Source: Candidatus Dojkabacteria bacterium
GTDB lineage: Bacteria > Patescibacteriota > Dojkabacteria > J137
Direction: 5' to 3'
Length of the DNA stretch: 64,000 bases
Assembly (NCBI GenBank): GCA_025993875.1
Contig: JAMQHH010000013.1
Span: 95,744-159,743 of the forward strand
The translations under genes were made by a program, and so were the position numbers. The notes under the pieces were generated by a model. That model was not told where the DNA came from. It was given only the letters and a program-made list of their open reading frames with translations, and made no database searches. Numbering within the stretch: position 1 is the stretch's first letter; each line of letters starts with the position of its first letter. This document shows positions 3,244 to 62,726 of the stretch, piece by piece.

Positions 3244-3391
3244 AAAAATCATTTCAGTATAAATTGTTAAAAAACCAAAAGTCAGCTGCCTGTTTTTGAT
3301 TCATCTAAAGCTGTAACGGAAAAAGGTTGGCTTTAACGTGATAATTATAATCGAAGTAGGATATAATGTAAAAGATTTTTAAACAATAGTT

Positions 3392-4048
3392 TTGAGCAAA
3401 AAAGATTATCAAAATCAAGTTCTTAAAATTCTAAAAAGTGAATTTCCCGAGGTTAAAACACCCCTTAAACATAACTCGGCTTTTCAACTTTTGGTTGCGA
3501 CAGTTCTTTCGCCTCAAACTTTAGACAGTACAACCAATAAGGTTACTCCGGCAATTTTTAAAAAGTATCCTAATCCCAAATTACTGGCAAATGCAAACCT
3601 GGACCAACTGGAAAATGAGATAAAAATTGTCAATTACTATAAAACAAAGGCTAAAAATCTTAAAAAAATGGCTCAAATTCTTTTGCAAAAATTTAACGGA
3701 GTTGTGCCTTCAAACTTAAATAATTTAATTGAACTGCCCGGTGTAGGTAGAAAAGTTGCTAATGTAATTATCTCAGAGTGGTTTTTTAAAACCCAAAATA
3801 TCGAACCCGAGGGCATTGTAGTGGATACACACGTAAAGCGGGTATCTTTTAGACTCGGTTTAACAAAAGAAACCGATCCGTATAAAGTAGAAAAAGACTT
3901 AAACAAACAGTTTCCTAAAAACGAATGGGCGGACCTTTCTTTAAGATTTATTTTTCATGGTCGTAAAACATGCAAAGCAAAAAATCCTTTGTGTAGCAGT
4001 TGTCCGCTAAAAAATATTTGTCCCCAAAAAGGTTTAAAGCGCCAATAA
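3392..4048 (+). CDS. nth: Endonuclease III (DNA glycosylase/AP lyase), TTG start
   Basis: HhH-GPD motif LPGVGRKVANVI. C-terminal 4Fe-4S cluster loop CKAKNPLCSSCPLKNIC. 218 aa. Confidence 0.85.
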   Translation: MSKKDYQNQVLKILKSEFPEVKTPLKHNSAFQLLVATVLSPQTLDSTTNKVTPAIFKKYPNPKLLANANLDQLENEIKIVNYYKTKAKNLKKMAQILLQKFNGVVPSNLNNLIELPGVGRKVANVIISEWFFKTQNIEPEGIVVDTHVKRVSFRLGLTKETDPYKVEKDLNKQFPKNEWADLSLRFIFHGRKTCKAKNPLCSSCPLKNICPQKGLKRQ

Positions 4049-4089: not shown

Positions 4090-5316
4090 ATGAATTTTCA
4101 GCTAAACTCAAAATTTGCTCCAGGCGGAGATCAGCCTCAGGCAATTGACTTGTTAACCCTTGGGTTGCAAAACGGTTTAAAGCATCAAACACTTATTGGT
4201 GCAACCGGCACCGGAAAGACATTTACAATGGCCAATGTGATTGTTAACTATAATCGACCTACCCTTGTACTGGCTCACAATAAAACATTGGCGGCACAAC
4301 TTTTTGCCGAGTTTAAAGAGTTTTTTCCAACAAATTCGGTGGAATATTTTGTAAGTTATTACGATTATTATCAGCCCGAAGCATATGTACCGCAACGCGA
4401 TTTGTATATAGAAAAAGATTCGGATATAAACGAAGTTATTGAAAGATATAGAAATTCGGCAACAATGGCTTTACTTTCCAGAAGAGATGTAATTATTGTA
4501 TCTACTGTAAGCTGTATTTATGGACTGGGAAACCCTGATTCGTATACCGAACTAAGCATTAAATTAAAAACGGGAATTGAATTTAAAAGAGATAAGCTTT
4601 TGGCACGGTTAAGAGATATGCAGTACGAAAGAACATCAAACGATTTTTTAATTGGTACGTTTAGGGTTAGAGGAGAACTTGTGGATGTCAATTTACCCAC
4701 ATCCGAAGATATTGGCGTAAGGATAGAATTTTTTGGCGATAACATCGAAACCATAAAATTAATAAATCCGATAAGTGGTGAACTTATCGGCAAAGTAGAT
4801 GAATATACAATTTTTCCCGCAAAACAATATGTTAGTACAACCGAAAATATTACAGGCACAATTGGGGTAATTAGAGACGATCTTGAAATAGAAAAAAAAG
4901 AGTTTGAGTCCAGAGGTAAAATGTTCGAAGCAGCGAGGTTAAATCAGAGAGTTAATTACGATTTGGAGATGCTTACAGAAACAGGTTACTGTAAGGGAAT
5001 TGAAAACTATTCCCGTTATTTGGACCATCGCAATCCGGGAACCCCGCCCTCTACTCTTTTAGATTATTTTTCGGACGATTATTTAATGTTTATAGACGAA
5101 TCTCATATCTCTGTTCCTCAGGTTAGAGGAATGTATAATGGTGATTTTGCCCGAAAACAAAATTTAGTAGATTACGGCTTTAGAATGAAATCGGCAATGG
5201 ATAACAGACCATTAAAATTTGAGGAATTTGAGCAAAGATTAAACCAGGTAATTTATACATCTGCAACCCCTGCGGAGTGGGAGATTGAAAAAAGCAAAGA
5301 GTCTGCAAGGCATTAA
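4090..5316 (+). CDS. uvrB: UvrB excinuclease subunit, N-terminal about 410 aa only. Helicase domain 3 and the UvrC-interacting C-terminal domain are absent
   Basis: Typical UvrB N-terminus (FQLNSKFAPGGDQPQAI, Walker A GATGTGKTF). The ORF ends right after the conserved YTSATP segment (..IYTSATPAEWEIEKSKESARH*), where full-length UvrB continues for about 250 aa. Confidence 0.8.
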   Translation: MNFQLNSKFAPGGDQPQAIDLLTLGLQNGLKHQTLIGATGTGKTFTMANVIVNYNRPTLVLAHNKTLAAQLFAEFKEFFPTNSVEYFVSYYDYYQPEAYVPQRDLYIEKDSDINEVIERYRNSATMALLSRRDVIIVSTVSCIYGLGNPDSYTELSIKLKTGIEFKRDKLLARLRDMQYERTSNDFLIGTFRVRGELVDVNLPTSEDIGVRIEFFGDNIETIKLINPISGELIGKVDEYTIFPAKQYVSTTENITGTIGVIRDDLEIEKKEFESRGKMFEAARLNQRVNYDLEMLTETGYCKGIENYSRYLDHRNPGTPPSTLLDYFSDDYLMFIDESHISVPQVRGMYNGDFARKQNLVDYGFRMKSAMDNRPLKFEEFEQRLNQVIYTSATPAEWEIEKSKESARH

Positions 5317-5338
5317 CTTAATTGATTACTTTTTTATG

Positions 5339-5800
5339 TCGAATAATACTTTCGACCATCTAAAGAAAAAAGCTGAGATGGCTCCGAAATTTCCTAAATA
5401 TTTAACAGATTCAAGCTGGCAGGAGTCTGAATCTCCAATAAAAAGATACCAAAATATTTTGGATAAACAGGAAAAAGTACTAATTGATTGGGTTCACGAG
5501 CCACTTGAATATATTGATGGTTTGCCAGAAATAAATAAAGATGGCCAAGGAAGCAAGATAGCTCTAAACGAAAGGGAAAAAGTAATTATTAACAGGTTAA
5601 GAGTTTTAAGAAGTGATCCGAGAGTTAGTGTTGAAGAAATTATAGATGATTTACATACAGGTAGTAAAGAATTTTATAGAGGGAAGATTGTAATAATTGG
5701 CGGTGGGATTGAAGATGTATGTTGTGAACAAAGATATTTATATCTTAGAGAGATTGGAGCTATACCTGTAATTGATTTAGCGTTAACAACGAGGTATTAA
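5339..5800 (+). CDS. Hypothetical protein (not a UvrB continuation)
   Basis: ORF 5285-5800. The internal Met at 5339 is the likelier start. No recognisable UvrB C-terminal motifs in any frame. Confidence 0.3.
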   Translation, partial: SNNTFDHLKKKAEMAPKFPKYLTDSSWQESESPIKRYQNILDKQEKVLIDWVHEPLEYIDGLPEINKDGQGSKIALNEREKVIINRLRVLRSDPRVSVEEIIDDLHTGSKEFYRGKIVIIGGGIEDVCCEQRYLYLREIGAIPVIDLALTTRY

Positions 5801-5801
5801 A

Positions 5802-6782
5802 TTAAGCAGATCGAAGTAAGTTCTCCAACTCTCCTAATAAACTATCGTAAACCGCTTTATCTTCGTTATCGTAATTTTGCAACATGTCCTCTAGACGTAC
5901 AAATGTGTGATACTTTGCTGAAATACTCTCTATAAATCCAGGCAAACTGTAACCAAGATCAGTAAACCCTTCTAAATTAAGAGCTTTGTTTTTGCTATTT
6001 AAACAAAACGGATAAAATCCAAAATAGATCCAAAATTTTAGCAGTGCCAGACACCATCTCATGGAAATAGATTCTTGCTTAAAAGGATCTGTTAACTTTT
6101 TACCTTCAAAATTCGGCGGGAAAGCAGTAATGTAAGATCCAACATCTCTATCTGTACTTGTTCCTACGCTTTCCTCTTGGCCTGCTTTATTTTTAAATTT
6201 TATCTGACAAAGTCCTGGATCAATAAATACTACCTCAAATTGTGAACCACTTCTTTTGATCTGAAAATTGCTTCCTTTTAAGTCGCGTGTGGCAACGCCT
6301 TTTTTTATCATCTCAAGCACATATTTCTCTATTGCCATTAGCACTAAGTTTTTTTCTTCTTTGCTGTTAAACTGGAATCTATCGAGAGCGGTGTATTCTT
6401 TTAGATATTCTAGGGCTATACCAATCTCTTCCGGAATATCTGTCCCGGTTTCTGCTCTAACATCTGGAATAAATGTTGCTTTATCTTTAAGAGTAGGATC
6501 AAAGGTTACTATACCAATAACATTAATTGTTCTAACACTAACTTTCTCGCCTTCGACTACAGAAATATTTTGTAACAGTTTTAATGCTAACATTTCGACC
6601 TGCGCTTTTACAGAGTATTCACTTTCTGTTTGGAATTTGAATTTTCGAGGCACTTTTAAAACCAACTCCACGCCACCGGCGCTTTCTTTTAAAATATAAA
6701 ACCATGCTGAAGATCCAGCATCCGTAAACTCAACCTTAGAAATAATAAATTTCGGTGTATTCGGGAGCTCTCTAGGATTCAT
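5802..6782 (-). CDS. Atypical protein-kinase-fold protein (ePK-like catalytic loop xRDLKxxN and DFG-like IDPG). Paralog of 7227-8228
   Basis: 326 aa. ..KKGVATRDLKGSNFQIKRSGSQFEVVFIDPGL.. aligns with ePK HRDLKPxN...DFG spacing. The shared C-terminal motif MRWCLALLKFWIYFGFYPF is also in the paralog. Confidence 0.45.
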   Translation of the reverse strand: MNPRELPNTPKFIISKVEFTDAGSSAWFYILKESAGGVELVLKVPRKFKFQTESEYSVKAQVEMLALKLLQNISVVEGEKVSVRTINVIGIVTFDPTLKDKATFIPDVRAETGTDIPEEIGIALEYLKEYTALDRFQFNSKEEKNLVLMAIEKYVLEMIKKGVATRDLKGSNFQIKRSGSQFEVVFIDPGLCQIKFKNKAGQEESVGTSTDRDVGSYITAFPPNFEGKKLTDPFKQESISMRWCLALLKFWIYFGFYPFCLNSKNKALNLEGFTDLGYSLPGFIESISAKYHTFVRLEDMLQNYDNEDKAVYDSLLGELENLLRSA

Positions 6783-7226: not shown

Positions 7227-8228
7227 TTATTCTATACTTATATTATATTTCTTTAACAAATCTAAAAGTTTTTCACAAATTGCTTTATAGAGTTCGTTGA
7301 ATTCATTTCCGTGAGGTAGCGGTACTTCTGCAAAAGTTGCATTGCCACTTAATATAGCATCACTTATTTTCTCAAATTTATCTTCTAGTTCTCGAGGTGA
7401 TATTCTTCTGCTAAAAAATTCTTCCATTGTAATTTCATTATTTCCTATATTAAATGGATATTTTTTAAAAATAATTAAAAATGCTAAGATAAGTGCTCCC
7501 CATCTCATGGAGTCCGCTTCCAGTTCAAAAGATATGCGAAGCCTTTTTAACAAATTATCCATCATAATCGGAAATCTTGTTGGAAAAGTACCTGCAACAT
7601 TTTCTGCTCCAAAACATGTGTATAAATTATTATTAAATTGAATTGTTCCAATATTGGCATCTAAAATTACACACTCCAAAAAACCATTTTTTAATCTTAA
7701 TCTAACATTATCAAACTTGAAATCTCTTGTTGCAAATCCTTTTTGAATGATTTCTTCGGTAAATTGAACTAAGCAAGAAAGAAAATTTAAAGCCATTGAA
7801 GGATCGGTTAAAGGTGAATTTTCTCGCATATGTGTGTGGATTGCCCAAAATCCATCTGGTAATTTTTCTGTTAATATTGCATGGTAAGTAGCATTTTGAA
7901 AAACTACATCTCCATGCCATAAAAGGTTTATTGGGACAATCTCAACATTTAATTCAGTTTTTCTTACTGATGAAATTAACTGAAGGGCTAAGGCTTCAAA
8001 TTCTTGCATAGTTAAAATTGAAGTATTTATTACCTCAGATCTTATAGGATATTTATCAATTTTTAAGAAGAAAGTTTTTTTTGGTTCAGTAGTACTTTCT
8101 AACTCAAAGATTTGGGATAATCCTCCCTGTGTGCCGGACAGACCCGTCACATTATACTGAACATTCCCTAAAGTTAAACTTCGATTAACAACAATTTCAA
8201 CCGTTTGGAGCTTTTCACTTTCACTCAT
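7227..8228 (-). CDS. Atypical protein-kinase-fold protein, paralog of 5802-6782
   Basis: 333 aa. ..QKGFATRDFKFDNVRLRLKNGFLECVILDANIG.. and C-terminal MRWGALILAFLIIFKKYPF. Same architecture as the 326-aa paralog. Confidence 0.45.
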   Translation of the reverse strand: MSESEKLQTVEIVVNRSLTLGNVQYNVTGLSGTQGGLSQIFELESTTEPKKTFFLKIDKYPIRSEVINTSILTMQEFEALALQLISSVRKTELNVEIVPINLLWHGDVVFQNATYHAILTEKLPDGFWAIHTHMRENSPLTDPSMALNFLSCLVQFTEEIIQKGFATRDFKFDNVRLRLKNGFLECVILDANIGTIQFNNNLYTCFGAENVAGTFPTRFPIMMDNLLKRLRISFELEADSMRWGALILAFLIIFKKYPFNIGNNEITMEEFFSRRISPRELEDKFEKISDAILSGNATFAEVPLPHGNEFNELYKAICEKLLDLLKKYNISIE

Positions 8229-8492: not shown

Positions 8493-10493
8493 TTAAATTA
8501 ACCCGGCTTTAATTCTTCTAATCCCTCCTCCGCTACTCTCCTCCTTAAATATTTTAAACCTTTTTCCTCCGTTTGCAAGTTCACTAGTGTTCCCAACATG
8601 CGGACCACCGCAAAATTCCATCGAAAATGGATCCTTTTCGTCGCCAATGCGATATATTGTTACAATCTCTCCATATTTTTGCCCAAATTCCATTTGCGCT
8701 CCCAATTTTTCGGCTTCTGCTTTTGGCATTTCCAGCCTTTCTACATTTAGCCCCTCAACTATTTTTTGATTAACAAGCTCTTCTACTTTTTTTATTTCGT
8801 CCTCCGTTAATTTTCTATCTAAATTAAAATCAATTCTTAACCGCTCGGCGGTAATATTGCTTCCTCTTTGTTTAATATTGGAATCGACAATTTTTTGGAG
8901 AGCTGCTAAAAGCAAATGATGTGCGGTGTGCAACTTTGTTGTTTCGATAGAATTATCTGCCAAACCACCTTTAAATTTTTGTTCACTCCCCGCGCGGGAT
9001 GCCTCGCGATGTTTTTGTTCCTCAGCTTTAAATTCTGCTTCGATTTTTTTTATTTGATTTTCGTCGGTTATTTTTAATTCCTCAATTATCATTTCGAGGG
9101 GGAAACCGTATGTTTCGTAGATATTGTATGCTGTTGCTCCGGAAATTGCCGATTCTATCTGTTGTAGAGAGGGAATTTGTTGAGGAGACGCAATCTGTTG
9201 ATGTGGAGACGCAAAATTTTGCGTCTCTACATTTTGCGGTATTTGTTTTTTGTCATTTTGTGTCTCTACAACAGCCCTTAGAAATTTTAGACCTTTTACA
9301 AGGGTTAATCTAAACGCGTTTTCTTCTTTATCTATGGCTTCTAAAACTGTTGCTTTTTGTTCCAAAAGGTGGGGATAGGCATTTTGCATTCTTTCTATTA
9401 CAGTTTCGGCAATAATCTTAGAAAAATTGTTATTAATCTCGAGCTTTATTCCGAATCTTATTAACCTTCTAATAAACCTGCGCAAAATATATCCCTGATC
9501 TTTATTGGATGGCATAACACCATCGGCCAAAATAAAGGTGGAGGCCCTTGCATGGTCGGCAATAATTCTGAATGCACTTGTAAATTCGTTTTCCTCCCCC
9601 TTTGTTTTATATGTTTTTCCAGATAACTGCCCTACTTTTTGGATTATCGGCATGTAAAGATCGGTTTCGAAGATATCATCTTTGCCTTGAACAATCATTA
9701 CTACCCTTTCGAATCCACCTCCAAAATCGATATTTTTTTGAGGGAGCATCTGCCATTTTAAATTAGTATCTAAAACATTTTGCATAAAAACATTGTTTCC
9801 AATCTCAATAAATCTCCCCGAATCATCATTTATATTGTATTTACCCTGCTCTACTCTAACCGAACCCAAATCGTAAAACATTTCCGAGGTAGGCCCGCCG
9901 AGTTCGCTTGGTGCGTGTGCTCTTTCCCACCAGTTCTTTTTTTTGGGAAAAGGAAAAATTCTATACTCCCAGTTTTTTCCCTCTTCCAGATTTTTAGGTA
10001 AATTAGAAATATCCTCGCAAAATTTGGCTGTTATTCCATATTTTAGAAAAGCCTCCTGCCAAATTTGTATTGCTTCAATATCCCTTGGCGCATCTGCGTC
10101 GCCTTCAAAAACACTTACATAAAGCCTGGACGGATCCAGATTACATTTTTCTATCCAAAACTCCATTATCCAGTTTATCTGCTCTTTTTTGAAAAAATCT
10201 CCCAGTGACCAGTTCCCAATCATCTCGAACATCGAGGTGTGCCTGTTATCACCTATTTCCATCAGATCATCGTAATTTGTTCGTAAACATCTTTGAATAT
10301 TCACTAATCGTTTTCCCATTGGATGAGGTAATCCTCCAAGATAAGGAGCCAATGGAAACATTCCTGAATTAACAAACAGAAGTGTTGAATCTACATTAGG
10401 AACAAGAGACATATTCGGAACAATTTTAGCGTTTCTGGGACTTTCGCTCCAAAAAGCTAAAAAGTCATTTCTAATTTCTTCGGAGGTTTTCAT
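8493..10493 (-). CDS. alaS: Alanyl-tRNA synthetase, short form (no C-Ala domain), with a Q/P-rich low-complexity insert
   Basis: N-terminus EIRNDFLAFW...STLLFVNSGMFPLAPYLGG. Editing-domain HxxxH (HTAHHLLLAALQ). 666 aa. Confidence 0.9.
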   Translation of the reverse strand: MKTSEEIRNDFLAFWSESPRNAKIVPNMSLVPNVDSTLLFVNSGMFPLAPYLGGLPHPMGKRLVNIQRCLRTNYDDLMEIGDNRHTSMFEMIGNWSLGDFFKKEQINWIMEFWIEKCNLDPSRLYVSVFEGDADAPRDIEAIQIWQEAFLKYGITAKFCEDISNLPKNLEEGKNWEYRIFPFPKKKNWWERAHAPSELGGPTSEMFYDLGSVRVEQGKYNINDDSGRFIEIGNNVFMQNVLDTNLKWQMLPQKNIDFGGGFERVVMIVQGKDDIFETDLYMPIIQKVGQLSGKTYKTKGEENEFTSAFRIIADHARASTFILADGVMPSNKDQGYILRRFIRRLIRFGIKLEINNNFSKIIAETVIERMQNAYPHLLEQKATVLEAIDKEENAFRLTLVKGLKFLRAVVETQNDKKQIPQNVETQNFASPHQQIASPQQIPSLQQIESAISGATAYNIYETYGFPLEMIIEELKITDENQIKKIEAEFKAEEQKHREASRAGSEQKFKGGLADNSIETTKLHTAHHLLLAALQKIVDSNIKQRGSNITAERLRIDFNLDRKLTEDEIKKVEELVNQKIVEGLNVERLEMPKAEAEKLGAQMEFGQKYGEIVTIYRIGDEKDPFSMEFCGGPHVGNTSELANGGKRFKIFKEESSGGGIRRIKAGLI

Positions 10494-23045: not shown

Positions 23046-23096
23046 GGAATGAAATGATCGTTGACAACCAAATTCCATTCCCTACTTTTTTTTTCG
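23044..23096 (+). terminator. Rho-independent terminator closing the tRNA cluster
   Basis: Hairpin CCGGAATGAAATG...AATTCCATTCC followed by CTAC and a T9 run. The T-run overlaps the KKK C-terminal codons of the convergent ligase gene. Confidence 0.5.
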
Positions 23097-24863
23097 TAAT
23101 TCGTACATTCTAATTATCTCTTTTACGGTGGTTGGTAGAAGTTTATCTCTCTTCCATTTCTTTAATCGCGGAAATCTTATAGATAGCCCTTTTACAGAAT
23201 TTTCGTCGTCAAATCCCGTTTTTATCCCAATAGCTGCTGTATGGGCAGGACTACGTGTAATTTCGTCGGCAATAATTTCGGCAATAATTTTGGGTTCTAT
23301 CCAGGTATCGGGGTATAACTGCTTATTCACAACAAAAATTTCTGGAATCTCTTTGACTTTAATTTCAAGTTTTCTCATATCGGTCAGCATGGTTTTCATC
23401 TCTTCTTCTTTAAATCCACTTCCTACTTTTCCAATACTGTAATACTTACCGTCATCTTCATTGAAGACGCCAACAAGTAAAGCTCCAAAACCAAACTGTG
23501 CTCTATCTCCTTTACCTCCATAAAACCCCATAACGGCAACATCAATTGTATCTACCATCTCAGCTTTTGCGTTGGCTTTTAATTTTATCCATTTAAAATT
23601 GCGGGTTCCTGGCTCGTAAATACTTTCACTGTCTTTTATAATTATTCCCTCTAACCCAGACTTGATATTTTTTAGGTAATACTCTTCCAGTTCTTCCGCT
23701 GTGGTTATCTCTTTCGTTTCGAGTATCTTTATGTTTTTTAGGTCTCCCTTTAAAATCTCATGTAATTTTTTTAATCGCTCTTTTAATTTAACAGATGTTA
23801 AATCTTCGCCGTTTAAATATAAAATATCGAAACACATTGCACATACTGGAATTGATTCCGCATGACCGGTAATTTCGTGCTTTCTTTTTCTTTTCATTGT
23901 TTCCTGGTATGTTCTATATTTATCCTGTTCAAAATTGAATCCGATAATTTCAGAATCTAAAATAATTGATTCTATATTAAGACTTTTAAGTTCTAAACAG
24001 ATCTCGGGAAATTGCATAGTCATCTCTTCCATATTTCTGGAAAAAATTTTAGCAATCCCGTTTTTAAAATGTAACTGCCCTCTAAGCCCATCCAATTTGG
24101 GTTGGACAATAGGGTTTGGCAGTCTTTCCCAAGACTTTTGTGAATCCAGCTCTCTTTCGACAAGTTTGGACGCAACGGGTGCAAATGGAGTTATTTCCAT
24201 CTTTTGAAATGATGTCAATAATTCCTCTTTGGAAAGAGTTTTTACCTGTTTGGCAATAAAACCAATGTCCGGCCTTTTACCATATGCCTTATCAAAAATC
24301 TCTCGAATAGATTTGTCTCCTGTTACATACCACGAAAACGCATCTAACAATGTTTTATCACTTAAGCCCAACCTTATGTTACCCTCAATAATTCTTGTAA
24401 CAAACTTAGCACTAAGGGAATCCAGCTTTTGTAAAAGTGCAATATATAGATTAATTTTTTGTTCTACCGATCCTTTGCCAGTACAATTTGCGATCTCTTC
24501 TAATTTTGAAAACACATCCCTTATGGTTAAATCCGCAGAGATGTTTTCCTTTATCAATTCCTCTGCAACAAGCCCGCAATCGCCCTTCTCCAGATAAAGC
24601 TTTTCAACTATGTTTTTTTCACCCGACAAAGGGTTTAAAAAGTCCAGGCGTAAGCTTAATGATCTTAGAATAAGCTTTTTAGAAAAATTAAACTCCAGTG
24701 GAACAAAAAGTGGAGCCAGTCTTCCTGTTAAAAGATATACGGCTTTCTCTATCTCATCTGAGTCGAGCTTTTTAATAAGCTCGGTCATTAGATAAGTCAT
24801 TTCTAACCTTTTAGGTGTGTTTTCTATTTTTTGCAAAAATTGGGCGAATTCGAAAAATTTCAT
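23082..24863 (-). CDS. ATP-dependent DNA ligase (Lig1/LigB-like)
   Basis: Adenylation motif I KLDGLRGQ (KxDGxR). OB and adenylation domain layout. 593 aa. Confidence 0.85.
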   Translation of the reverse strand: MKFFEFAQFLQKIENTPKRLEMTYLMTELIKKLDSDEIEKAVYLLTGRLAPLFVPLEFNFSKKLILRSLSLRLDFLNPLSGEKNIVEKLYLEKGDCGLVAEELIKENISADLTIRDVFSKLEEIANCTGKGSVEQKINLYIALLQKLDSLSAKFVTRIIEGNIRLGLSDKTLLDAFSWYVTGDKSIREIFDKAYGKRPDIGFIAKQVKTLSKEELLTSFQKMEITPFAPVASKLVERELDSQKSWERLPNPIVQPKLDGLRGQLHFKNGIAKIFSRNMEEMTMQFPEICLELKSLNIESIILDSEIIGFNFEQDKYRTYQETMKRKRKHEITGHAESIPVCAMCFDILYLNGEDLTSVKLKERLKKLHEILKGDLKNIKILETKEITTAEELEEYYLKNIKSGLEGIIIKDSESIYEPGTRNFKWIKLKANAKAEMVDTIDVAVMGFYGGKGDRAQFGFGALLVGVFNEDDGKYYSIGKVGSGFKEEEMKTMLTDMRKLEIKVKEIPEIFVVNKQLYPDTWIEPKIIAEIIADEITRSPAHTAAIGIKTGFDDENSVKGLSIRFPRLKKWKRDKLLPTTVKEIIRMYELRKKK

Positions 24864-29763: not shown

Positions 29764-32700
29764 TTACTGTATTACAATATAATCCCCAATTATATCAGAA
29801 GCTAGGGGTTCTACAAAGTTGACTGTAAATTTTCCTTCTGTTTTTTCTATCCAGTACTGTGGTACTAGAGAATTGAATGTAACAAAAACTTTGCTTGTAG
29901 TATCAAATTCCTCAATTATCACTTCGATTTTATCTAAGCCAGCAGCACCTGCTATCTCTCCACTACTTTTTTCGGTTAAGGCTAACTTTTCGATATAAGC
30001 GCTTGTTGCTTTTAACTCCGCCACATTTAACGATCCATTTATTATCAAAACAGATTCTGATATATTAATTAAATCCGAAATACCAAGGATCTTTGCCTTT
30101 TGCTCCTCTGTAAATTCGTTTCCGGGAATTACAATAGCAGCAAGTTGTGATTTTAATAAATTAATCTCTTCTTGTAAGAGATTAATTTTAGCCTCTATAG
30201 GGTTTAAATCTGTTTTTTCGGTTGGAAGATTATTTCTACTTACCAATACATTTATTATATCCGTACTTTCGGTTTGATCTTCCATTGCAACTCCAAGTGT
30301 TAGATCGCCGGCAAATGCTTTCATACCATGTCCCGGCATATCCGAAACAGTTACAAAATCCCCTCTTTTAATTAAGCCGTTTTGATCGTTTACTTTGGTC
30401 GGTAAAACACCGGATAATCCCACAGGATAAGAACGGGAATTCTTAAAAGGAGTATTTCCCATTACAATTGTCGGATTAGTAGAGATAATTCCTATTGCTT
30501 TATCGTTTTTTGAAGCTGTTTTTGAAATTTGTTTCCAGTCTCCATTAATATTTTCTCCCGAAAGCTTTACAATTTCTCCTCTATATAAACTTTCGGCAGA
30601 AGAAAATGTTTCTGCAATGTCGCAGCCATCTACTCCACCGTCACCGCCATCACTGTCACCACAGGCACCGGTCATTGTAACCGCCCCTGCAATGTTTAAT
30701 GTGCCATCCTCGGTTACTATATCATTAGCGCCTTCTGCCCCACCGTTAGAAAAATATATTCCATTTGTTCCTGTTCTAACAATTTGTAATTCTGTTGTCC
30801 CCGCACCTGCAAGATAAAGACCTACACTGCTACTGGTGGCTCCGGTTACCGAACCTATGTACATTCCATAAGAATTTGTTGCTGCTCCGGAAAGACCTCC
30901 TACGTACACACCGTAATTTGTGTTGGTTCCACCACTAAATGGATCTACATAAACACCTGCCATCATATCTCCCGCTGTTAATCCACCTGCAAAGCTTACG
31001 TAATTTCCTATAACAAATCCGGAAGCTGCACCAGCTCCCATTAACAGCTGCTGCCCAACAAAGTTCCCTGTTAATGTACCTGGGGATAATGAATTATAAA
31101 TTCCAAATCCGTGGGTTCCGCTACCGTTATTCGTAAACTGGTTGTAAATGCCATACATTGTGCTGACTCCATCATTATTAGTAACGTAATTTGTTATTCC
31201 TGCAAAGGTAGATACGCTTCCGTTATTTGTAGAAGAGTTCGAAAGTGTTTCTACAAATCCAAGCGAAGCTGCTACCGGAACGGTAAGCGAATTTCTAACA
31301 GGAAAATAATTTCCTGCAAGGGGAGTGTTAGTGCTACTGTTTATTTCTAAAATAGAATCTGCATATACTCCTGCATCGAAAATTGCTACCCGACTGTTAC
31401 TTGCAGCGATACTTCCATTTAAAACATTTAAAGCCGAGTCGCCTGTGTCCCAGTAAAAATTGGCTGAAGCACCAAAAGAACCGGAGCTATTAAATTGTAT
31501 TTCACTATCATTTCCTGCAGGAGTTCCTCCACCCCCTGCGGCAAGTAAATCAACATTAGTAGACCCGTCATAAAAGTAAAGTTCAGAGCCGTTCCACCAT
31601 AAATCACCCGATACGGGAGCGGATGGATCAAATCCGCTTGGAATTCTTAAGCTGGAAAGTGCAGTTGTGGAAGCACCAAGCCTTGTAAGACCGGCATCGA
31701 CCCATATAGATGCATTAGTGCCGCTTCCTCCGCTGGCTCCTTCAATATATAATCCGTAAGAACTGGATGAACCTGTTCCCACGATCTCACCAAGATAAAC
31801 ACCAAAGTTAGAAACTGTTCCTCCTGAAAGTTCATCAATTTTTACGCCATAAACACCATTGGCAACTGAAAGGGTTGCACCTGCAAAATTAATCTGTGAA
31901 CCAATAAGATCTCCGCTTATTGTTGAGTCCCCTACAGCAAGATAATTACCTACAAAGTTTCCGGAAGCTGTACCAGGAGTTACAGTTGTATAAATTCCGT
32001 ACCCGTTTCCTATTGTCCAGTTATTCAAAACTTCGTTGTAAACACCAAACATAGATGTTACACCACTAATGTTATTCATGTAATTACGAATACCATAATA
32101 ATCCGTAATAATACCCCAATTTGCAGATAAATTATAAATAGAAGCAGCTGTGCCAAGAGTTGCTGATGAATCAATTGTATTATCATTATAAATCGGATAG
32201 AAATTACCAGATGTTGGAACATTAGCTAAACCGTAAATGTTTAAAATTCTTTCGGCATTAGTTGTGCCATCTAAAAGAGATAATCTTCCTGTTTCTGCAA
32301 TAATATTGCCGGTAACATGTAAAGCCTCGGACGGTGTGTTAGTCCCTATCCCTAGCATTGCGTTTCCTAAGCCACTACGTGCAAATGCAAAAAGCTCATC
32401 ACCTGTTCCAGGATCTCTTAAAATAAGCTTTCCGGGCCCAGCAGCGCTACTATCATCTGTTGACTGAAAATACCATTGATTTGCTCCGGAATACGAATTT
32501 TCAAAAAACAATCCTAGTCCATCACCCAGACTTCCTCTTATACTTAACCCTCTGTCACAACATGGACTTCCATCGGTATCTACCACAAGTGTTTTATTCC
32601 CTCCGTTGGTTCCTACCCCCAGCCAGTTATTTGTATTATCCCAAAACAAATCAGAAGAGGCTCCAAAAGATCCGGAATTATTGAATTGAATCTCGCCATT

Positions 32701-34596
32701 GGCTCCCGCAGGGGTTCCTCCGCCTCCGGCCAATAAGTTTACATTACTCGAACCATTGTAGAAATAAAGTTGAGTTCCGTTCCACCACAAATCTCCGGAA
32801 ACCGGTGAGGACGGATCAGTACCTGCTGCAACTCTAACTGACGAATTGGAAGCCGTAGACGGGGCAAGCCTTGTAAGGCCACTATTAACCCACACAGTTG
32901 CATTTTGAGTAGTAGCTCCGCTTGCACCTGCCAGGTATAACCCATAGCTTTCATCTCCTCCCGTTACTGTTGAAACATGTATTCCATAATTTTTAGCTGT
33001 CGCAGGTGTAGTACCTCCTGCTAAATCAAGTTTTAATCCATAGTTAAAGGTGGTTGCATCAAATCCTATGCTGTAACTTGCGCCATACAGGTTAGTCGGT
33101 CTTATTCCCAAACCATAAACATCACTCATTGCAATTTTAGTTCCGTATGCTTCACCGGTAATATCTCCCCCTAAATTGATTGACCCAAGAAGTCCCACAA
33201 CCATACCATCGCTATTTGCAGATGCATACTGATCAACTCGGTAATTAATTCCGCCAAGAGCCGATCCCAGTCCTCCCGAAGTAGCGGTACCTTCCAAATG
33301 TCTTGTCCATAAATAAAGACCTCTTACCCCTTCTTCAGTATTGCCGGTGTTATCTGATCTTCCGTATATTGCTGCTACCTGCCCCTTTTGAGTTAAAGAT
33401 CTGTTATCCGAAACAAAAGAGCCACCAAAGGATCCATATGCAGTACCACCTGTTGTGGCTAAAACAGATCCGCTATAAAAAGTTGAAAATCCATGAATTC
33501 CTGCGGCAGAAGATGTGCTTTCGCCGGTTGATGTATATTCTATTCTTCCTGCTACTCCCCTTAGTTCTCCTGGTGTGTTGGAACTTCCTGTATTAACAAC
33601 CGACCTAATCCCCTGTGTTAAACCTGTACTGTTATTTGTTGCATTTACAAAAACAGGGTATAAATCCCCCGATGTCTGATTATTTGTTGAGTTATCAATT
33701 TTTAAGATTGAGTTTTGCGAAGGGGTGGCGTCCCAAAGTGCTAGCCTTCCGCCTGTACCTGAATTTGTAGAAACAACTACATTGCCACCTGCAACAGAAA
33801 GTAACTCCAATGGTGTTTGCGTTCCAATTCCAATGTTGCCGTTTTCATTAACATTTAATCTAGATACTCCTGCTGTAAAAAAGTCTATTCCGTTAGAGCT
33901 GCTTTGTACGGATTTGGTATTTGAAAAAAATATATCAGTATCGGCAGTTAAATCAATTCTCTGATTTAATGGGCTTAAAGCAAAAGTGTTAGCACCATTT
34001 AAAACAGAGAGGTTTCCGTTTGTCGATACATTAAGCCGCGAAGCTCCATTAAAATTTAATCCTAATATATTTCCATCTCCTCCATATGAATTAACGGAAT
34101 ATGCTGTCTCACCAGTACTGATTGTTGCCGGACCCAAATTTCTTGCTCGTAAAGCAAATGCTTCTGCCGTAATTTTACGCCTTGGTTTAAACTCCTCTTC
34201 AAAACCTCCGCCACAAGTTGCAGTTCCGTCTCCTGCTGTTGTATTAGCATCAAAACAAACCTGTAAATATAGTTCGGAATTTGTCTCGAAAATAGATGAA
34301 GGCATGCTTACATTCTCTCCTAAATTAACACTAATTCCGCCAAGCCTCGAGCCAACTCCCAAAACTGTTTCCGCCCATAAAGGTGTTCCGCCTGTTTTAG
34401 AACTGAAAATTATAAATCTAAAATTATAGCTCCCATCTGTGAGTGCTTCCTGCTTATTATTAATTATAGATGTTTTAAAGTTAATTACCTCATTAGAAGG
34501 AGAAGCCAAAACTCTCGGCGAAAAAAAGAATGTTATCCCTAAAAAGGTTGCTAGAGTTATTATTTTTTTCATATTTTTATACATTAACCTGTGCAA
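29764..34596 (-). CDS. Giant secreted Gly/Ser/Thr/Asn-rich surface protein (1610 aa) with internal repeats and a C-terminal coiled coil
   Basis: Signal peptide (..MKKIITLATFLGITFFFSPRVLA). Two about 70-aa repeat units (..PVSGDLWWNG[T/S][Q/E]LYFY[N/D]GS[S/T]NV[N/D]LLAGGGGTPAG..EIQFN[N/S]SGSFGAS..). Composition typical of beta-helix or fibre-like adhesins. Confidence 0.6.
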   Translation of the reverse strand: MHRLMYKNMKKIITLATFLGITFFFSPRVLASPSNEVINFKTSIINNKQEALTDGSYNFRFIIFSSKTGGTPLWAETVLGVGSRLGGISVNLGENVSMPSSIFETNSELYLQVCFDANTTAGDGTATCGGGFEEEFKPRRKITAEAFALRARNLGPATISTGETAYSVNSYGGDGNILGLNFNGASRLNVSTNGNLSVLNGANTFALSPLNQRIDLTADTDIFFSNTKSVQSSSNGIDFFTAGVSRLNVNENGNIGIGTQTPLELLSVAGGNVVVSTNSGTGGRLALWDATPSQNSILKIDNSTNNQTSGDLYPVFVNATNNSTGLTQGIRSVVNTGSSNTPGELRGVAGRIEYTSTGESTSSAAGIHGFSTFYSGSVLATTGGTAYGSFGGSFVSDNRSLTQKGQVAAIYGRSDNTGNTEEGVRGLYLWTRHLEGTATSGGLGSALGGINYRVDQYASANSDGMVVGLLGSINLGGDITGEAYGTKIAMSDVYGLGIRPTNLYGASYSIGFDATTFNYGLKLDLAGGTTPATAKNYGIHVSTVTGGDESYGLYLAGASGATTQNATVWVNSGLTRLAPSTASNSSVRVAAGTDPSSPVSGDLWWNGTQLYFYNGSSNVNLLAGGGGTPAGANGEIQFNNSGSFGASSDLFWDNTNNWLGVGTNGGNKTLVVDTDGSPCCDRGLSIRGSLGDGLGLFFENSYSGANQWYFQSTDDSSAAGPGKLILRDPGTGDELFAFARSGLGNAMLGIGTNTPSEALHVTGNIIAETGRLSLLDGTTNAERILNIYGLANVPTSGNFYPIYNDNTIDSSATLGTAASIYNLSANWGIITDYYGIRNYMNNISGVTSMFGVYNEVLNNWTIGNGYGIYTTVTPGTASGNFVGNYLAVGDSTISGDLIGSQINFAGATLSVANGVYGVKIDELSGGTVSNFGVYLGEIVGTGSSSSYGLYIEGASGGSGTNASIWVDAGLTRLGASTTALSSLRIPSGFDPSAPVSGDLWWNGSELYFYDGSTNVDLLAAGGGGTPAGNDSEIQFNSSGSFGASANFYWDTGDSALNVLNGSIAASNSRVAIFDAGVYADSILEINSSTNTPLAGNYFPVRNSLTVPVAASLGFVETLSNSSTNNGSVSTFAGITNYVTNNDGVSTMYGIYNQFTNNGSGTHGFGIYNSLSPGTLTGNFVGQQLLMGAGAASGFVIGNYVSFAGGLTAGDMMAGVYVDPFSGGTNTNYGVYVGGLSGAATNSYGMYIGSVTGATSSSVGLYLAGAGTTELQIVRTGTNGIYFSNGGAEGANDIVTEDGTLNIAGAVTMTGACGDSDGGDGGVDGCDIAETFSSAESLYRGEIVKLSGENINGDWKQISKTASKNDKAIGIISTNPTIVMGNTPFKNSRSYPVGLSGVLPTKVNDQNGLIKRGDFVTVSDMPGHGMKAFAGDLTLGVAMEDQTESTDIINVLVSRNNLPTEKTDLNPIEAKINLLQEEINLLKSQLAAIVIPGNEFTEEQKAKILGISDLINISESVLIINGSLNVAELKATSAYIEKLALTEKSSGEIAGAAGLDKIEVIIEEFDTTSKVFVTFNSLVPQYWIEKTEGKFTVNFVEPLASDIIGDYIVIQ

Positions 34597-39909: not shown

Positions 39910-40950
39910 TTATTCAACAAAAACAATAAAAGGTTTTATTAATTTAAAAAATCTCTCTGTTATTTTAACACTCTTACTTAATTTTTTCTTTTCTTCTTGC
40001 GACCCATATATTATAACCAAATTTGTGTTTCCCGGGCTGTTTTTTATCTCTCTAGCAAGATTTTCCAAAAATTCTCTATTGGTGTTACCTGTTATATCTA
40101 TTAAAATTTCCATCTCTTCTATTTCGGCAAGAGACAAAGCTTCAATTTCGGTTATATTCAGCTTCTTTTTTATCTTTTCGATATCTTCCTCGGCGGCCAA
40201 AGTTTCGGGGTAAATTTCATTTTCAACTAAAAGTTTTCTAATCTCAATATTATTATGAATATGTTCGGCTTTAATTTTATCTTTTCCCATAAAAGATTTC
40301 TCCTTCGTTTTGTAGGTTGTCATCTCGGTTGCAAGCTGTTTGGCGGTAAGCGCAATTGTTGGTAATACATCTGCCAGGGGTTTACTTGGGTCAAGTTTAT
40401 ACTTTTCTTTTAGTTCGCGTGTTCTGGTTTTAAAAAGTGCCTCATCTCCACTGGAACGAATTTCTGCGATTCCTTTATTATCTACTTTATGTTCACTTAG
40501 AACGCCCGAAAAAACTTTTTCAGCTTCTCTTAACCTTTCGCGCGCTTTTATTCTTTCCATATTTTTTTCGTACTCCTCTTTAAGCTCCTGTTTTCGAGTT
40601 TGTGTCGCAAAATAGGATTGTGCCAGGGCAATTTCTTGTTTTGCAGGATCACCGTTTTGAGCTATAAGGTAGCACGCGTAGCGGGATAAAACGTAATCTT
40701 TTAGTTTAAGTTCTATTTCACCATGACGGTTTTTGCTTTTCTTGATTTTGTGAGAATGCGCAAAAGCTAGGGAAGATTCAAAGGCACTATTATCCGATGC
40801 CTTTTTTGCTTTGTGGATAAGTTTATCAAACTCACGCCACCCTTTGTAGCCAAGGACATTCATAAGTTCCCTTGCACTCCAGAACTCGTTTCCTTCTTTA
40901 TCAATATGCTTAATTTCTTCCAAACGGTTTGAGGTAGTTTTTATGGTCAT
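39910..40950 (-). CDS. Bro-N/DinD-like (DNA-damage-inducible protein D family) N-terminal domain fused to a long charged coiled-coil region
   Basis: N-terminus ..EEIKHIDKEGNEFWSARELMNVLGYKGWREFDKLIHKAKKA.. closely resembles DinD/Bro-N family openers. 346 aa. Ends 3 nt before pheS. Confidence 0.45.
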   Translation of the reverse strand: MTIKTTSNRLEEIKHIDKEGNEFWSARELMNVLGYKGWREFDKLIHKAKKASDNSAFESSLAFAHSHKIKKSKNRHGEIELKLKDYVLSRYACYLIAQNGDPAKQEIALAQSYFATQTRKQELKEEYEKNMERIKARERLREAEKVFSGVLSEHKVDNKGIAEIRSSGDEALFKTRTRELKEKYKLDPSKPLADVLPTIALTAKQLATEMTTYKTKEKSFMGKDKIKAEHIHNNIEIRKLLVENEIYPETLAAEEDIEKIKKKLNITEIEALSLAEIEEMEILIDITGNTNREFLENLAREIKNSPGNTNLVIIYGSQEEKKKLSKSVKITERFFKLIKPFIVFVE

Positions 40951-60050: not shown

Positions 60051-62726
60051 ATGGGTAATACTCAACAACCAAAAAAATTTAACCGTAAAATTCTCATCTT
60101 TATATTTTCGATTCTTGTTTTAAATGCAGTTTTGGTTTCGAGGGTTGTTGCGCAGCCTGCACGTTCGCCATCGAGCATAAATTTATTTACAATAATTTCG
60201 CCCCAGGAAAATGCATTTTTAAAAAACGACACATCTTATAGCCATTCCGAAATGGGCGGGATAATAGGAGATACAATTTCGGCCGCAGAAACTGTTTTGG
60301 GAGGAGATTCTTTTTCCAACCAGTATGCCCAAAGCAAAAGCACATCAGACTCTATTAGTTCAATCTTAAAGCAATATCCCGATATAGACTATAACACTGC
60401 AATCTATCTAATTAATAACAGCACTGCAGGTGGTGGAGTTATGGGTATGATTTCGTCGGGAACAAATTTACTTGTAACACAAAGACCAGCATCGGGAACC
60501 TGGTTTTTAGAACAAAAAGTTTACGCTCTTACTAATCCCGGCAAAGTTTATGCGCAGTCCTCTACCCCATCGCCTTATTACCCGGGGCTTGGATTTGATT
60601 TATTAAAGCCGATTTACGGGTTTTGGGGATGGTCGGTAAATATTGTTTTTGGATTTCTTATTTTGCTTATAATCGTTATTGCTTTTGCAATAATGTTTCA
60701 GCAACGTCTTGGAGCAAAAACCGCAATAACATTGCAAACTGCTATTCCAAGTATTGCGCTTGCACTTATCTTAGTTCCCTTTAGTTATGCTATCTCGGGT
60801 GCATTTATAGACTTAATAACTCTTGGCACAAATGTTGTTCACGGATTTGTTTTAGGACCGGGTTCTCCCGGAAAAGGAGTTTACGATGATATTGTAAGTG
60901 AATCTATATCCCAAACTGACTGTGCAAAAAACGGCGTTTTTGGAGACGATTGTAATAGAGGTCTTTATGCCGACGATTGGCGTGTTGGAGTTTTACGCTT
61001 TAGGGAACAAATAGATTTACGGCCGACTTTCTCGGAAGTGGGCGATACTTTGCAGCTAAAGGTTTTTGATTTTATTGTCCCAATCTTAAACGCAATATTC
61101 TGGGAAGAGGCAGCCACGGGGCAAACAGTTCCATCTACTGCTGCGTGGTTTGGTGCAATTGTTAACATGGGTTTATCGATTTTAATGATCTGGTACGGCA
61201 TTAAAGCATTTATTATTTTATTCGGAAAATATTTAACATTAATAATTTTACCTATTGCATCTCCGTTTATTTTTGCCACTGTTGCCGTTCCGGGAACGGG
61301 AATAAAAAATGTTACCATGTATGCAAAACGACTTGGCGCAGCAGCACTTTCGTATATTGTAACTTATGGAATACTGCTTTTAACTATAGTTCTAACACAT
61401 CAGGCGTTTTTATCTACCCTTCCCGAACTTAGATCGGGGGCTTTTGTTCCGCCACTTTTAGGAATAACAGCAGCAATTGGTGGAGGAAGTACAACTTTGG
61501 CAAAGCTTCTATTTACCCTTATTGGACTCGGAATGTATTTTTCGTTACCAAAAATTTTGGCAAGTGTAGATAAGGCCTTGGGAGTAAGTGGACCGCTAAT
61601 TCCTGATTTTATAAAGACACCTTGGGAAGGGCTAAAGGAGAGCTGGAATGTTACGAGAGGGGTAGCAGGAAGAGCTGTAAGGGCTCCTTTTGCTGTGCCT
61701 GGTTTAGCGCAAAAGGGACTTGAAGTTTTAGAATCAACTAGAGATGGATTAAATCTTAATGCAATGAGGAACAGATGGATTGCAAGAAGACAGGACAGAG
61801 CGGGTATTGGACAGGAAAATGAAACAAGTGCGAGATACCAGCATAAGAAGGACTTAGAAGGTAAATGGGCAGAGGCAAAGCGACAGTTTGATGCTGCTGT
61901 TGCATCCGGAGACAGGCGTGGTGCATTGAGATATAAAGGGGATATGGACGATTTAGATAAAGAGGCAACTAGAAATAGCATAACATTATCCCATTCAACT
62001 AAACCCGAGGATAAAGTTTCTATATCGGCAGTATTTAAGAGTAAAAGCAATGACCCAGATAATATGATTATATTCAAAACAGATAGGCTAGATGATATCT
62101 TCCTAAAAGTAACAGGAAGGAAAAATATGACGGATGCAGCAGGAAGCTATCCGGTTGCAACTGCTTTAATTGCAGCTGACTTGGTTCTGGAAGCAAAGAA
62201 ACTTGCATTCCCTCCAGAACCAGTAATCCAGATTGGGTATGCATCTTTAGTGCCTGGGTCTTCTCAAGATCTTGAGTGGGGAGGTCCAGCTCCTGCCAAC
62301 GAACAATTTAGTGCTGCTATTGCATCTCCCCCTGCTGTTGCGTTGACTTTTGGGGCAGCGAAAACCGGGTTCGAAAATTTTATTCGAATAAGAGCAAACA
62401 ATGGATTCCCGGCAATGACTCCCGCTGATGTCGCGAAATTGAAAAAAGCTTTATCTCCGGATTATTATGAAGGCAAAAAGATAACTATTCCTATGGCGGT
62501 TGAGATTGGATTTGGAACGCCACTTGCGTCCCTCAACGAAGTAAGTTTTGGAGAGTTGTTTGGAACAAGGGACACTAGCACAGGAAGATACGTAGGGGGA
62601 TTTTTGGCAAGCTATGGTGCCAGTTTTAAATTTGGTGATGTAGGAACTGACTCAAACAAAAGGATATTTAGGATTAACGGAAAAGATTCTAATGCAATAA
62701 CCGTTAATATAATTAAGCAGGACTAA
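60051..62726 (+). CDS. Large polytopic membrane protein with N-terminal signal peptide, central 6-8 TM block and about 390-aa hydrophilic C-terminal region. TrbL/VirB6-like topology (speculative)
   Basis: 891 aa. Signal peptide ILIFIFSILVLNAVLVSRVVAQP. TM cluster between about aa 200 and 500. Charged C-terminus. Confidence 0.3.
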   Translation: MGNTQQPKKFNRKILIFIFSILVLNAVLVSRVVAQPARSPSSINLFTIISPQENAFLKNDTSYSHSEMGGIIGDTISAAETVLGGDSFSNQYAQSKSTSDSISSILKQYPDIDYNTAIYLINNSTAGGGVMGMISSGTNLLVTQRPASGTWFLEQKVYALTNPGKVYAQSSTPSPYYPGLGFDLLKPIYGFWGWSVNIVFGFLILLIIVIAFAIMFQQRLGAKTAITLQTAIPSIALALILVPFSYAISGAFIDLITLGTNVVHGFVLGPGSPGKGVYDDIVSESISQTDCAKNGVFGDDCNRGLYADDWRVGVLRFREQIDLRPTFSEVGDTLQLKVFDFIVPILNAIFWEEAATGQTVPSTAAWFGAIVNMGLSILMIWYGIKAFIILFGKYLTLIILPIASPFIFATVAVPGTGIKNVTMYAKRLGAAALSYIVTYGILLLTIVLTHQAFLSTLPELRSGAFVPPLLGITAAIGGGSTTLAKLLFTLIGLGMYFSLPKILASVDKALGVSGPLIPDFIKTPWEGLKESWNVTRGVAGRAVRAPFAVPGLAQKGLEVLESTRDGLNLNAMRNRWIARRQDRAGIGQENETSARYQHKKDLEGKWAEAKRQFDAAVASGDRRGALRYKGDMDDLDKEATRNSITLSHSTKPEDKVSISAVFKSKSNDPDNMIIFKTDRLDDIFLKVTGRKNMTDAAGSYPVATALIAADLVLEAKKLAFPPEPVIQIGYASLVPGSSQDLEWGGPAPANEQFSAAIASPPAVALTFGAAKTGFENFIRIRANNGFPAMTPADVAKLKKALSPDYYEGKKITIPMAVEIGFGTPLASLNEVSFGELFGTRDTSTGRYVGGFLASYGASFKFGDVGTDSNKRIFRINGKDSNAITVNIIKQD

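Follow-up and report, generated by a model that had tools for sequence, protein, structure and literature searches.

UvrB is the central component of bacterial nucleotide excision repair and, to our knowledge, a single-chain protein throughout the bacteria. In the canonical enzyme, as represented by the structures from Bacillus caldotenax (2FDC, 1D9X) and Bacillus subtilis (2D7D), the partner of domain 2 is UvrA and that of the C-terminal UVR domain is UvrC. Enzymes divided over two genes have been described for other systems. The cyanobacterial genes dnaE-n and dnaE-c lie far apart and together encode one enzyme, whose halves are joined covalently by trans-splicing of a split intein. In the Nanoarchaeota, the split in reverse gyrase separates the helicase from the topoisomerase module. 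The split genes of this group (reverse gyrase and the large helicase-related protein) have a split site common to the lineage and were interpreted as derived characters of reduced symbiotic genomes, with post-translational assembly thought to be needed (PMC3655853). Here, a uvrB gene was analysed in a stretch of 64,000 nucleotides from Candidatus Dojkabacteria bacterium (contig JAMQHH010000013.1, positions 95,744 to 159,743; referred to as the window). The gene encodes the N-terminal half of the protein only, and we consider it very probable that uvrB is naturally split here and that this gene is one of its halves, derived by fission of an ancestral single gene within a clade of Candidatus Dojkabacteria (Patescibacteria/Candidate Phyla Radiation, CPR).

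Taken together, the two halves contain the same domains and motifs as canonical UvrB in the same order, and they align to it with high identity over residues 4–404 (N-half) and 405 to about 653 (C-half). The split form differs from it in being encoded by two genes (in a relative on opposite strands, with about 280 kb between them), in an expanded linker and in an insertion of about 32 amino acids (aa) in domain 3 that is also present in fused relatives. The split genes of Nanoarchaeota are the closest known phenomenon, but they belong to Archaea and concern other proteins, whereas the cut in uvrB runs between the two RecA-like lobes of a common ATP site. Split-intein genes likewise comprise two distant genes for one enzyme; unlike these, the uvrB halves contain no intein sequence, and their joining must therefore be non-covalent. 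The fission of this core repair gene is real and clade-wide, and it is apparently undescribed, as literature searches for a divided uvrB, or for gene fission in the CPR that affects this gene, yielded no description.

The N-half of the window (408 aa; for all coordinates see Table 1) was matched by phmmer with residues 2–402 to residues 4–404 of B. caldotenax UvrB (2fdc_A, E 4e-160), and Pfam assigned UvrB_inter (PF17757, residues 157–247, E 6e-28) as well as ResIII. It carries domains 1a, 2 and 1b, the beta-hairpin and the UvrA-interaction domain, and its motifs are intact: GTGKT at residue 40 (Walker A, motif I), TLVLAHNK at 58 (motif Ia), DESH at 336 (motif II) and SATP at 391 (motif III), together with the damage-probing beta-hairpin YYDYYQPEAY at residue 90. 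The protein ends 14 residues past the SATP of motif III with YTSATPAEWEIEKSKESARH (equivalent to AEWEIEKSKESARH), the tail being KSKESARH. Domain 3 (motifs IV–VI) and the C-terminal UVR domain are not on this polypeptide. They are also absent from the window in every frame, because a tblastn search of the whole 64 kb in all frames with P0102, a fused relative of 711 aa, found residues 4–407 only and none of residues 408–711. A preliminary description of this DNA, made from the letters alone, had stated that the uvrB N-terminus ends after motif III, and open reading frame (ORF) calling, Pfam, phmmer and tblastn over the window all agree. The C-terminal part is absent as described there, but about 300 aa are gone and not about 250. 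It had also placed an unrelated ORF downstream, which is present, although the proposed overlap with the uvrB stop is not needed: independent gene calls use the ATG at 5336, and the 171-aa version starting at a TTG is a mechanical maximum only.

Against the NCBIfam UvrB equivalog (NF003673/TIGR00631), the N-half scored 630 bits over model positions 1–403 of 653 and the probable C-half of the same organism, described below, 345 bits. Both fall below the cut-off of 743 bits, which the fused P0102 passes with 971. The sum of the two halves (630 + 345 = 975) equals the score of a full UvrB.

The short form is not restricted to this organism. Among the best 120 homologues of the N-half, 108 have a length of 398–441 aa at 64–100% identity, and the 12 fused-form proteins (668–713 aa) appear at 68% identity or lower only; those of the 108 with a named source came from Candidatus Dojkabacteria or were labelled 'Patescibacteria group'. 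A neighbour-joining tree of these 120 matches, rooted with Bacillus UvrB, placed the 108 short proteins in one clade with the 12 fused proteins as its sister, and the group of the window (P0001–P0005, P0021, P0028, P0047, P0049 and P0055) formed the first branch within the split clade. The fused sisters of about 710 aa include P0102, P0107, P0117 and P0120 and are 62–68% identical to the split halves. The linker and the domain 3 insertion, both specific to the clade, are present in them too, and they differ from the split form in being a single polypeptide that passes the equivalog cut-off. One split N-half (P0096, 414 aa, from Logan) and one fused protein (P0116, 709 aa, from NCBI) have 23,482 bp as the exact size of their longest contig, which is either a coincidence or may reflect one contig with both forms. 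A search of a representative library for independent splits in other phyla was noisy and gave no convincing case. P0322, the only protein of about 403 aa with the same end point, was rejected as an independent split on account of its degraded motifs (GSEKT, YYNYCQ).

The missing part was found as a gene of its own. A query with the C-terminal 313 aa of P0102 retrieved about 115 stand-alone proteins of 291–317 aa that carry Helicase_C, UvrB and UVR, and those with a name again belong to Dojkabacteria; over all searches, about 120 such proteins were seen. They begin with M..LPKNYxGIVYQIIRPTGLLDP, and their residues NGIVYQIIRPTGLLDP align to B. caldotenax UvrB 405–420, while the N-half ends at 404. 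The summed length of the halves (408 + 296 = 704 aa) compares with 711 aa for fused P0102. On contig ERZ25039495:contig_16963 (1,140,724 bp), the N-half P0009 at about 805 kb and the C-half P0144 at about 1,086 kb lie on opposite strands about 280 kb apart, a separation measured on this one contig. In six more pairs, N- and C-half list longest contigs of identical size. Pairwise identities of N- and C-halves correlate over nine pairs (r = 0.89, and 0.72 without the closest pair), with r = 0.72 also in the seven contig-matched pairs only. Each half has surroundings of its own. Synteny is partly conserved at both loci. The N-half has nth upstream and alaS downstream; as alaS is an anchor in several Dojkabacteria, this locus is stable. 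The C-half locus varies by subclade, with mnmA, VanW or PGK-RNaseH-HD-S30AE genes nearby. Across the lineage, the two genes are thus unlinked, the split site is common and both parts are maintained.

For the organism of the window, P0245 (296 aa) is almost certainly the C-half partner. It was found in sequencing run SRR30015097, which also holds the N-half of the window, and in runs numbered next to N-half runs (SRR30015096, SRR22348916 and SRR34397397/404/405). Its locus L115 (20.9 kb, 32.8% GC) shows a tetranucleotide correlation with the window of 0.995, compared with 0.994 between two parts of the window and 0.86–0.95 for other Dojkabacteria loci. P0245 belongs to a cluster (P0241–P0246) retrieved by a search seeded with P0177, and the clusters of the two halves mirror each other: P0244, P0245 and P0246 differ by single residues, like the N-halves P0001–P0003, and P0241 with 91% identity among C-halves parallels P0004 with 94% among N-halves, these two co-occurring in SRR29931269. 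The protein contains VLVTTLTK, GINLLREGLD, DADKEGFLRS, QVIGRAAR and a UVR-like end. From its ATG onwards, the gene overlaps the 3' end of an upstream glycosyltransferase gene by 26 nt (L115 10001–10026), which suggests that the C-half is co-transcribed and translationally coupled with a cell-envelope gene and not with repair genes. Four other C-halves (P0226, P0212, P0177 and P0165) were dismissed as partners, as they have no sequencing run in common with the N-half of the window. A contig scan with the C-half alignment, which includes the universal UvrB motifs KYLHSDID and DADKEGFL, gave unrelated bacteria among the matches listed. In the same locus as P0245 lies a short form of mfd, which scored 757 bits against TIGR00580, just under the cut-off of 800. 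The same gene is present in L017 (339–2828) and was called as two genes in L018 (340–648 and 789–2828; 679 + 102 aa), probably owing to a frameshift or assembly error, though it could be another split.

The site of the break was examined by junction alignment and by mapping to structures from the Protein Data Bank (PDB), in which the halves abut at B. caldotenax residues 404/405. In the fused sister clade, a variable linker of 8–20 aa lies between ...SATPxEYE(L/I)xxS(K/R)xSA.. and ..xxYxG(I/V)VEQIIRPTGLLDP, and Bacillus is without a linker at this junction (HS directly followed by PGVVEQ). The junction of the fused proteins P0117 and P0120, LSKKSAKKVTSTEL-PKNYAGYVEQLIRP, resembles a split N-tail (NSKKSAKEVL..) followed by a C-head (M.LPKNYxGIVYQ), which argues that the linker grew before the fission and that the cut fell inside it. 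In the AlphaFold2 model of fused P0102 (predicted local distance difference test, pLDDT, 83.8), residues 397–409 (EYELNISRQSASK, corresponding to the N-tail) form a helix, residues 410–424 form a loop that represents the fission site, and residues 425–428 (IVEQ) form a short strand with a pLDDT of about 92, followed by the linker IIRPTGLLDP and the first strand of domain 3 at 439–443. When the C-half P0245 was modelled alone (pLDDT 83.8), residues 1–24 were coil (pLDDT 77–81), compared with 95–97 for the rest of domain 3. A C-head that is a strand in the fused model and coil in the lone C-half would have its partner in the N-half. By the topology of superfamily 2 (SF2) helicases, RecA-like domain 1a ends with strand 425–428, which places the cut about 10 residues ahead of the boundary between domains 1a and 3. 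In 75 C-halves, the C-head always has Y8 and G10, a conservation that would fit a structural role. In split and fused clades alike, the domain 3 insertion (about 32 aa) comes after the first strand of this domain (P0245 about 31–62, P0102 445–476); it was modelled as a helical element with a pLDDT of 92–94 and might add interface between the lobes.

Both genes exist and are intact, they co-occur and co-diverge under strong purifying selection, and neither contains an intein. From this, a mechanism can be proposed. The break lies within an expanded linker specific to the lineage, after the helix behind motif III and ahead of the final beta-strand of RecA-like domain 1a. Walker A, DESH and the damage-probing beta-hairpin are on the N-half, together with domain 1b and domain 2 for the binding of UvrA. 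The C-half (about 296 aa) has the final strand of domain 1a (GIVYQIIRP), motifs IV–VI of domain 3, with the arginines that would make the ATP site complete, and the UVR domain for the binding of UvrC. The two polypeptides are expected to associate non-covalently as a heterodimer, in which domain 1a of the N-half would take up the N-terminal strand of the C-half and so probably anchor it. Such a two-chain UvrB would then take part in nucleotide excision repair alongside UvrA, UvrC and Mfd. In studied UvrB, domain 3 contributes half of the ATP site and is needed for it, and the domain 3 arginines are essential (PMC3458569). With the ATP site and the binding of UvrA and UvrC spread over both halves, repair requires that the two polypeptides come together in a complex. 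The N-half most probably belongs to a complete two-chain UvrB and does not point to a loss of excision repair in this organism, uvrA and uvrC yet to be located.

Some explanations treat the short gene as damaged. A frameshift, a premature stop or a chimeric join near position 5300, an error that was also raised in the preliminary description, would have truncated a normal uvrB, and the chance of this is negligible. The 408-aa gene occurs with the same neighbours in at least eight independent run-level assemblies (L001–L008) with 0 nucleotide differences, the DNA of the C-half is identical across 10 assemblies, all 108 short homologues end at the same position, no frame of the window encodes UvrB residues 408–711 and the missing part is found as a separate gene elsewhere. 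Decay would mean that the C-half is gone, that the N-half drifts and that the organism is without excision repair. CPR genomes are reduced, neither half alone reaches the equivalog cut-off and the 64-kb window showed no uvrA or uvrC, all of which would suit such a remnant, but selection makes a pseudogene highly improbable. Between the N-half and P0004 of a sister lineage (L111, 94% aa identity), 134.5 synonymous and 33.5 non-synonymous differences were counted, corresponding to a synonymous rate (dS) of 0.90, a non-synonymous rate (dN) of 0.036 and a dN/dS of 0.04; the constraint is tighter than in the adjacent endonuclease III gene (0.12) and very much tighter than in two ORFs downstream (0.29 and 0.41). 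The C-half co-occurs and is equally constrained between the same two lineages (dN/dS 0.05, dS 0.80), every catalytic motif is intact and mfd is retained beside the C-half. Of the options named in the preliminary description, a natural split with the C-half elsewhere agrees with the clade-wide split, with purifying selection on both halves and with the matching P0245, in which the motifs suggested there for a search were recovered (VLVTTLTK and DADKEGFLRS). Loss of the C-half is contradicted by the co-occurring P0245, and pseudogenisation by the dN/dS of 0.04.

Other explanations accept both genes and differ in what becomes of their products. Covalent joining by a split intein, as in cyanobacterial DnaE, would account for halves that are encoded far apart on opposite strands, as is often the case in split-intein genes. 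However, there is no room for an intein, as only 6 residues (K + ESARH) extend past the alignment of the N-half and about 9 precede that of the C-half; the summed length stays below that of the fused protein, Pfam finds UvrB and helicase domains only, and the tails vary in length and sequence, so that trans-splicing is hardly credible. It is also improbable, if somewhat less so, that the halves have diverged in function and no longer form one enzyme, with the N-half binding damage in dependence on UvrA and the C-half serving on its own as an ATPase or an adaptor for UvrC. This would suit two unlinked genes in different transcriptional contexts (nth–uvrB-N and glycosyltransferase–uvrB-C), and a UvrB chain of 411 residues in the PDB (7egt_A) matches the N-half only, query residues 10–402 corresponding to chain residues 12–402. 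This chain, which is presumably a laboratory fragment of full-length UvrB and not a natural gene product, suggests by analogy that the span of the N-half can fold on its own. Functional divergence is opposed by an ATP site that requires residues from both halves (PMC3458569), by halves that are near-canonical (about 55% identical to Bacillus UvrB) and co-diverge under the same constraint, and by the summed NCBIfam score equal to that of fused UvrB. A further proposal, which we regard as unlikely but worth stating, is that fission has created a two-subunit motor, in which an ATPase and UvrC-recruiting C-half would be expressed and recruited apart from the damage-binding N-half and tethered to it by strand donation. 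If true, it would imply a regulated assembly of the pre-incision complex, or a C-half common to other partners such as Mfd.

A natural split whose halves act together as UvrB is therefore preferred, and the following points count against it. The tree is a simple neighbour-joining tree of the best 120 matches, from which a single origin of the split appears plausible but is not rigorously established. P0245 was assigned to the exact genome by co-occurrence, composition and mirrored divergence and not by a common contig. That the halves bind each other is something we infer, the donation of a strand being predicted from two monomer models and from knowledge of SF2 topology. Finally, neither uvrA nor uvrC was located in this organism or seen in the 64-kb window; of the genes in question, only mfd was seen, beside the C-half.

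The split has consequences for annotation. NCBI names the N-half 'DEAD/DEAH box helicase family protein' and the C-half 'UvrB/UvrC motif-containing protein', generic names that are probably due to each half falling below the equivalog cut-off. Pathway reconstructions may thus wrongly score Dojkabacteria as lacking UvrB, or the gene as a pseudogene, and since automated calls of excision repair can miss a split UvrB, caution is advisable in the annotation of CPR genomes. The split uvrB is a bacterial (CPR) counterpart to the split genes of Nanoarchaeota (PMC3655853). A clade in which the two lobes are unlinked is also a natural experiment on the weight of covalent linkage in an SF2-type motor and on the interface that suffices between its lobes.

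Table 1. Location of the uvrB halves, the fission point and other features discussed in the text (positions refer to the window unless locus L115 is given).
Feature	Sequence	Position	Strand	Remarks
Promoter-like site	window	3338..3367		
Endonuclease III (HhH-GPD, FeS)	window	3392..4048	+	41 bp upstream of the uvrB N-half
uvrB N-half, 408 aa	window	4090..5316	+	ATG start; TAA stop at 5314–5316
Fission point, tail after motif III	window	5270..5316	+	junction alignment and PDB mapping
ORF of 154 aa, not UvrB	window	5336..5800	+	ATG 20 nt after the uvrB stop
Paralogous ORF, 326 aa	window	5802..6782	-	
Paralogous ORF, 333 aa	window	7227..8228	-	
alaS, alanyl-tRNA synthetase	window	8493..10493	-	synteny anchor downstream of the uvrB N-half in several Dojkabacteria
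ATP-dependent DNA ligase	window	23082..24863	-	
ORF of 1610 aa	window	29764..34596	-	
BRO-N domain protein, 346 aa	window	39910..40950	-	adjoins pheS and pheT
ORF of 891 aa	window	60051..62726	+	
mfd, short form, 827–829 aa	L115	431..2914	-	about 7 kb upstream of the C-half
uvrB C-half P0245, 296 aa	L115	10001..10891		sources NCBI and Logan

Upstream of the N-half, HhH-GPD genes are also found in L009, L111 and L113, and endonuclease III is possibly co-transcribed with it in the window. A promoter-like site precedes endonuclease III; promoter and terminator matches around the gene were no commoner than in shuffled sequence. The 154-aa ORF that follows the N-half matched no Pfam family and was seen only in the species of the window (L001–L007) and its sister (L111/L112), where it is 80% identical with the dN/dS of 0.29 given above; other genes follow the N-half in L009 and L113. 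A fusion of uvrB to this ORF by frameshift or readthrough was considered and rejected, as the ORF lies in another frame and is not conserved after the N-half in other Dojkabacteria. The next two ORFs (326 and 333 aa) are paralogues with 33% identity over 132 aa (E 1e-14) that carry a kinase-like 'ATRDLKxxN' loop. They had no Pfam match above threshold, the best being an ABC1 atypical kinase (E 0.15), and they evolve fast, the 326-aa ORF accounting for the dN/dS of 0.41.

Further features of the window were noted in passing. No Pfam family was found at E ≤ 1e-5 in the ORFs of 1610 and 891 aa. The alanyl-tRNA synthetase has 666 aa, with tRNA_SAD at residues 611–661 as its last Pfam match, and is shorter than the usual bacterial enzyme of about 870 aa. 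Bacteria normally use the NAD-dependent LigA; the window encodes an ATP-dependent DNA ligase of the archaeal/eukaryotic type, in which DNA_ligase_A_N, _M and _C are all present and which bears on ligation in repair. BRO-N domains are typically associated with phages, and in the window a protein with this domain adjoins pheS and pheT.

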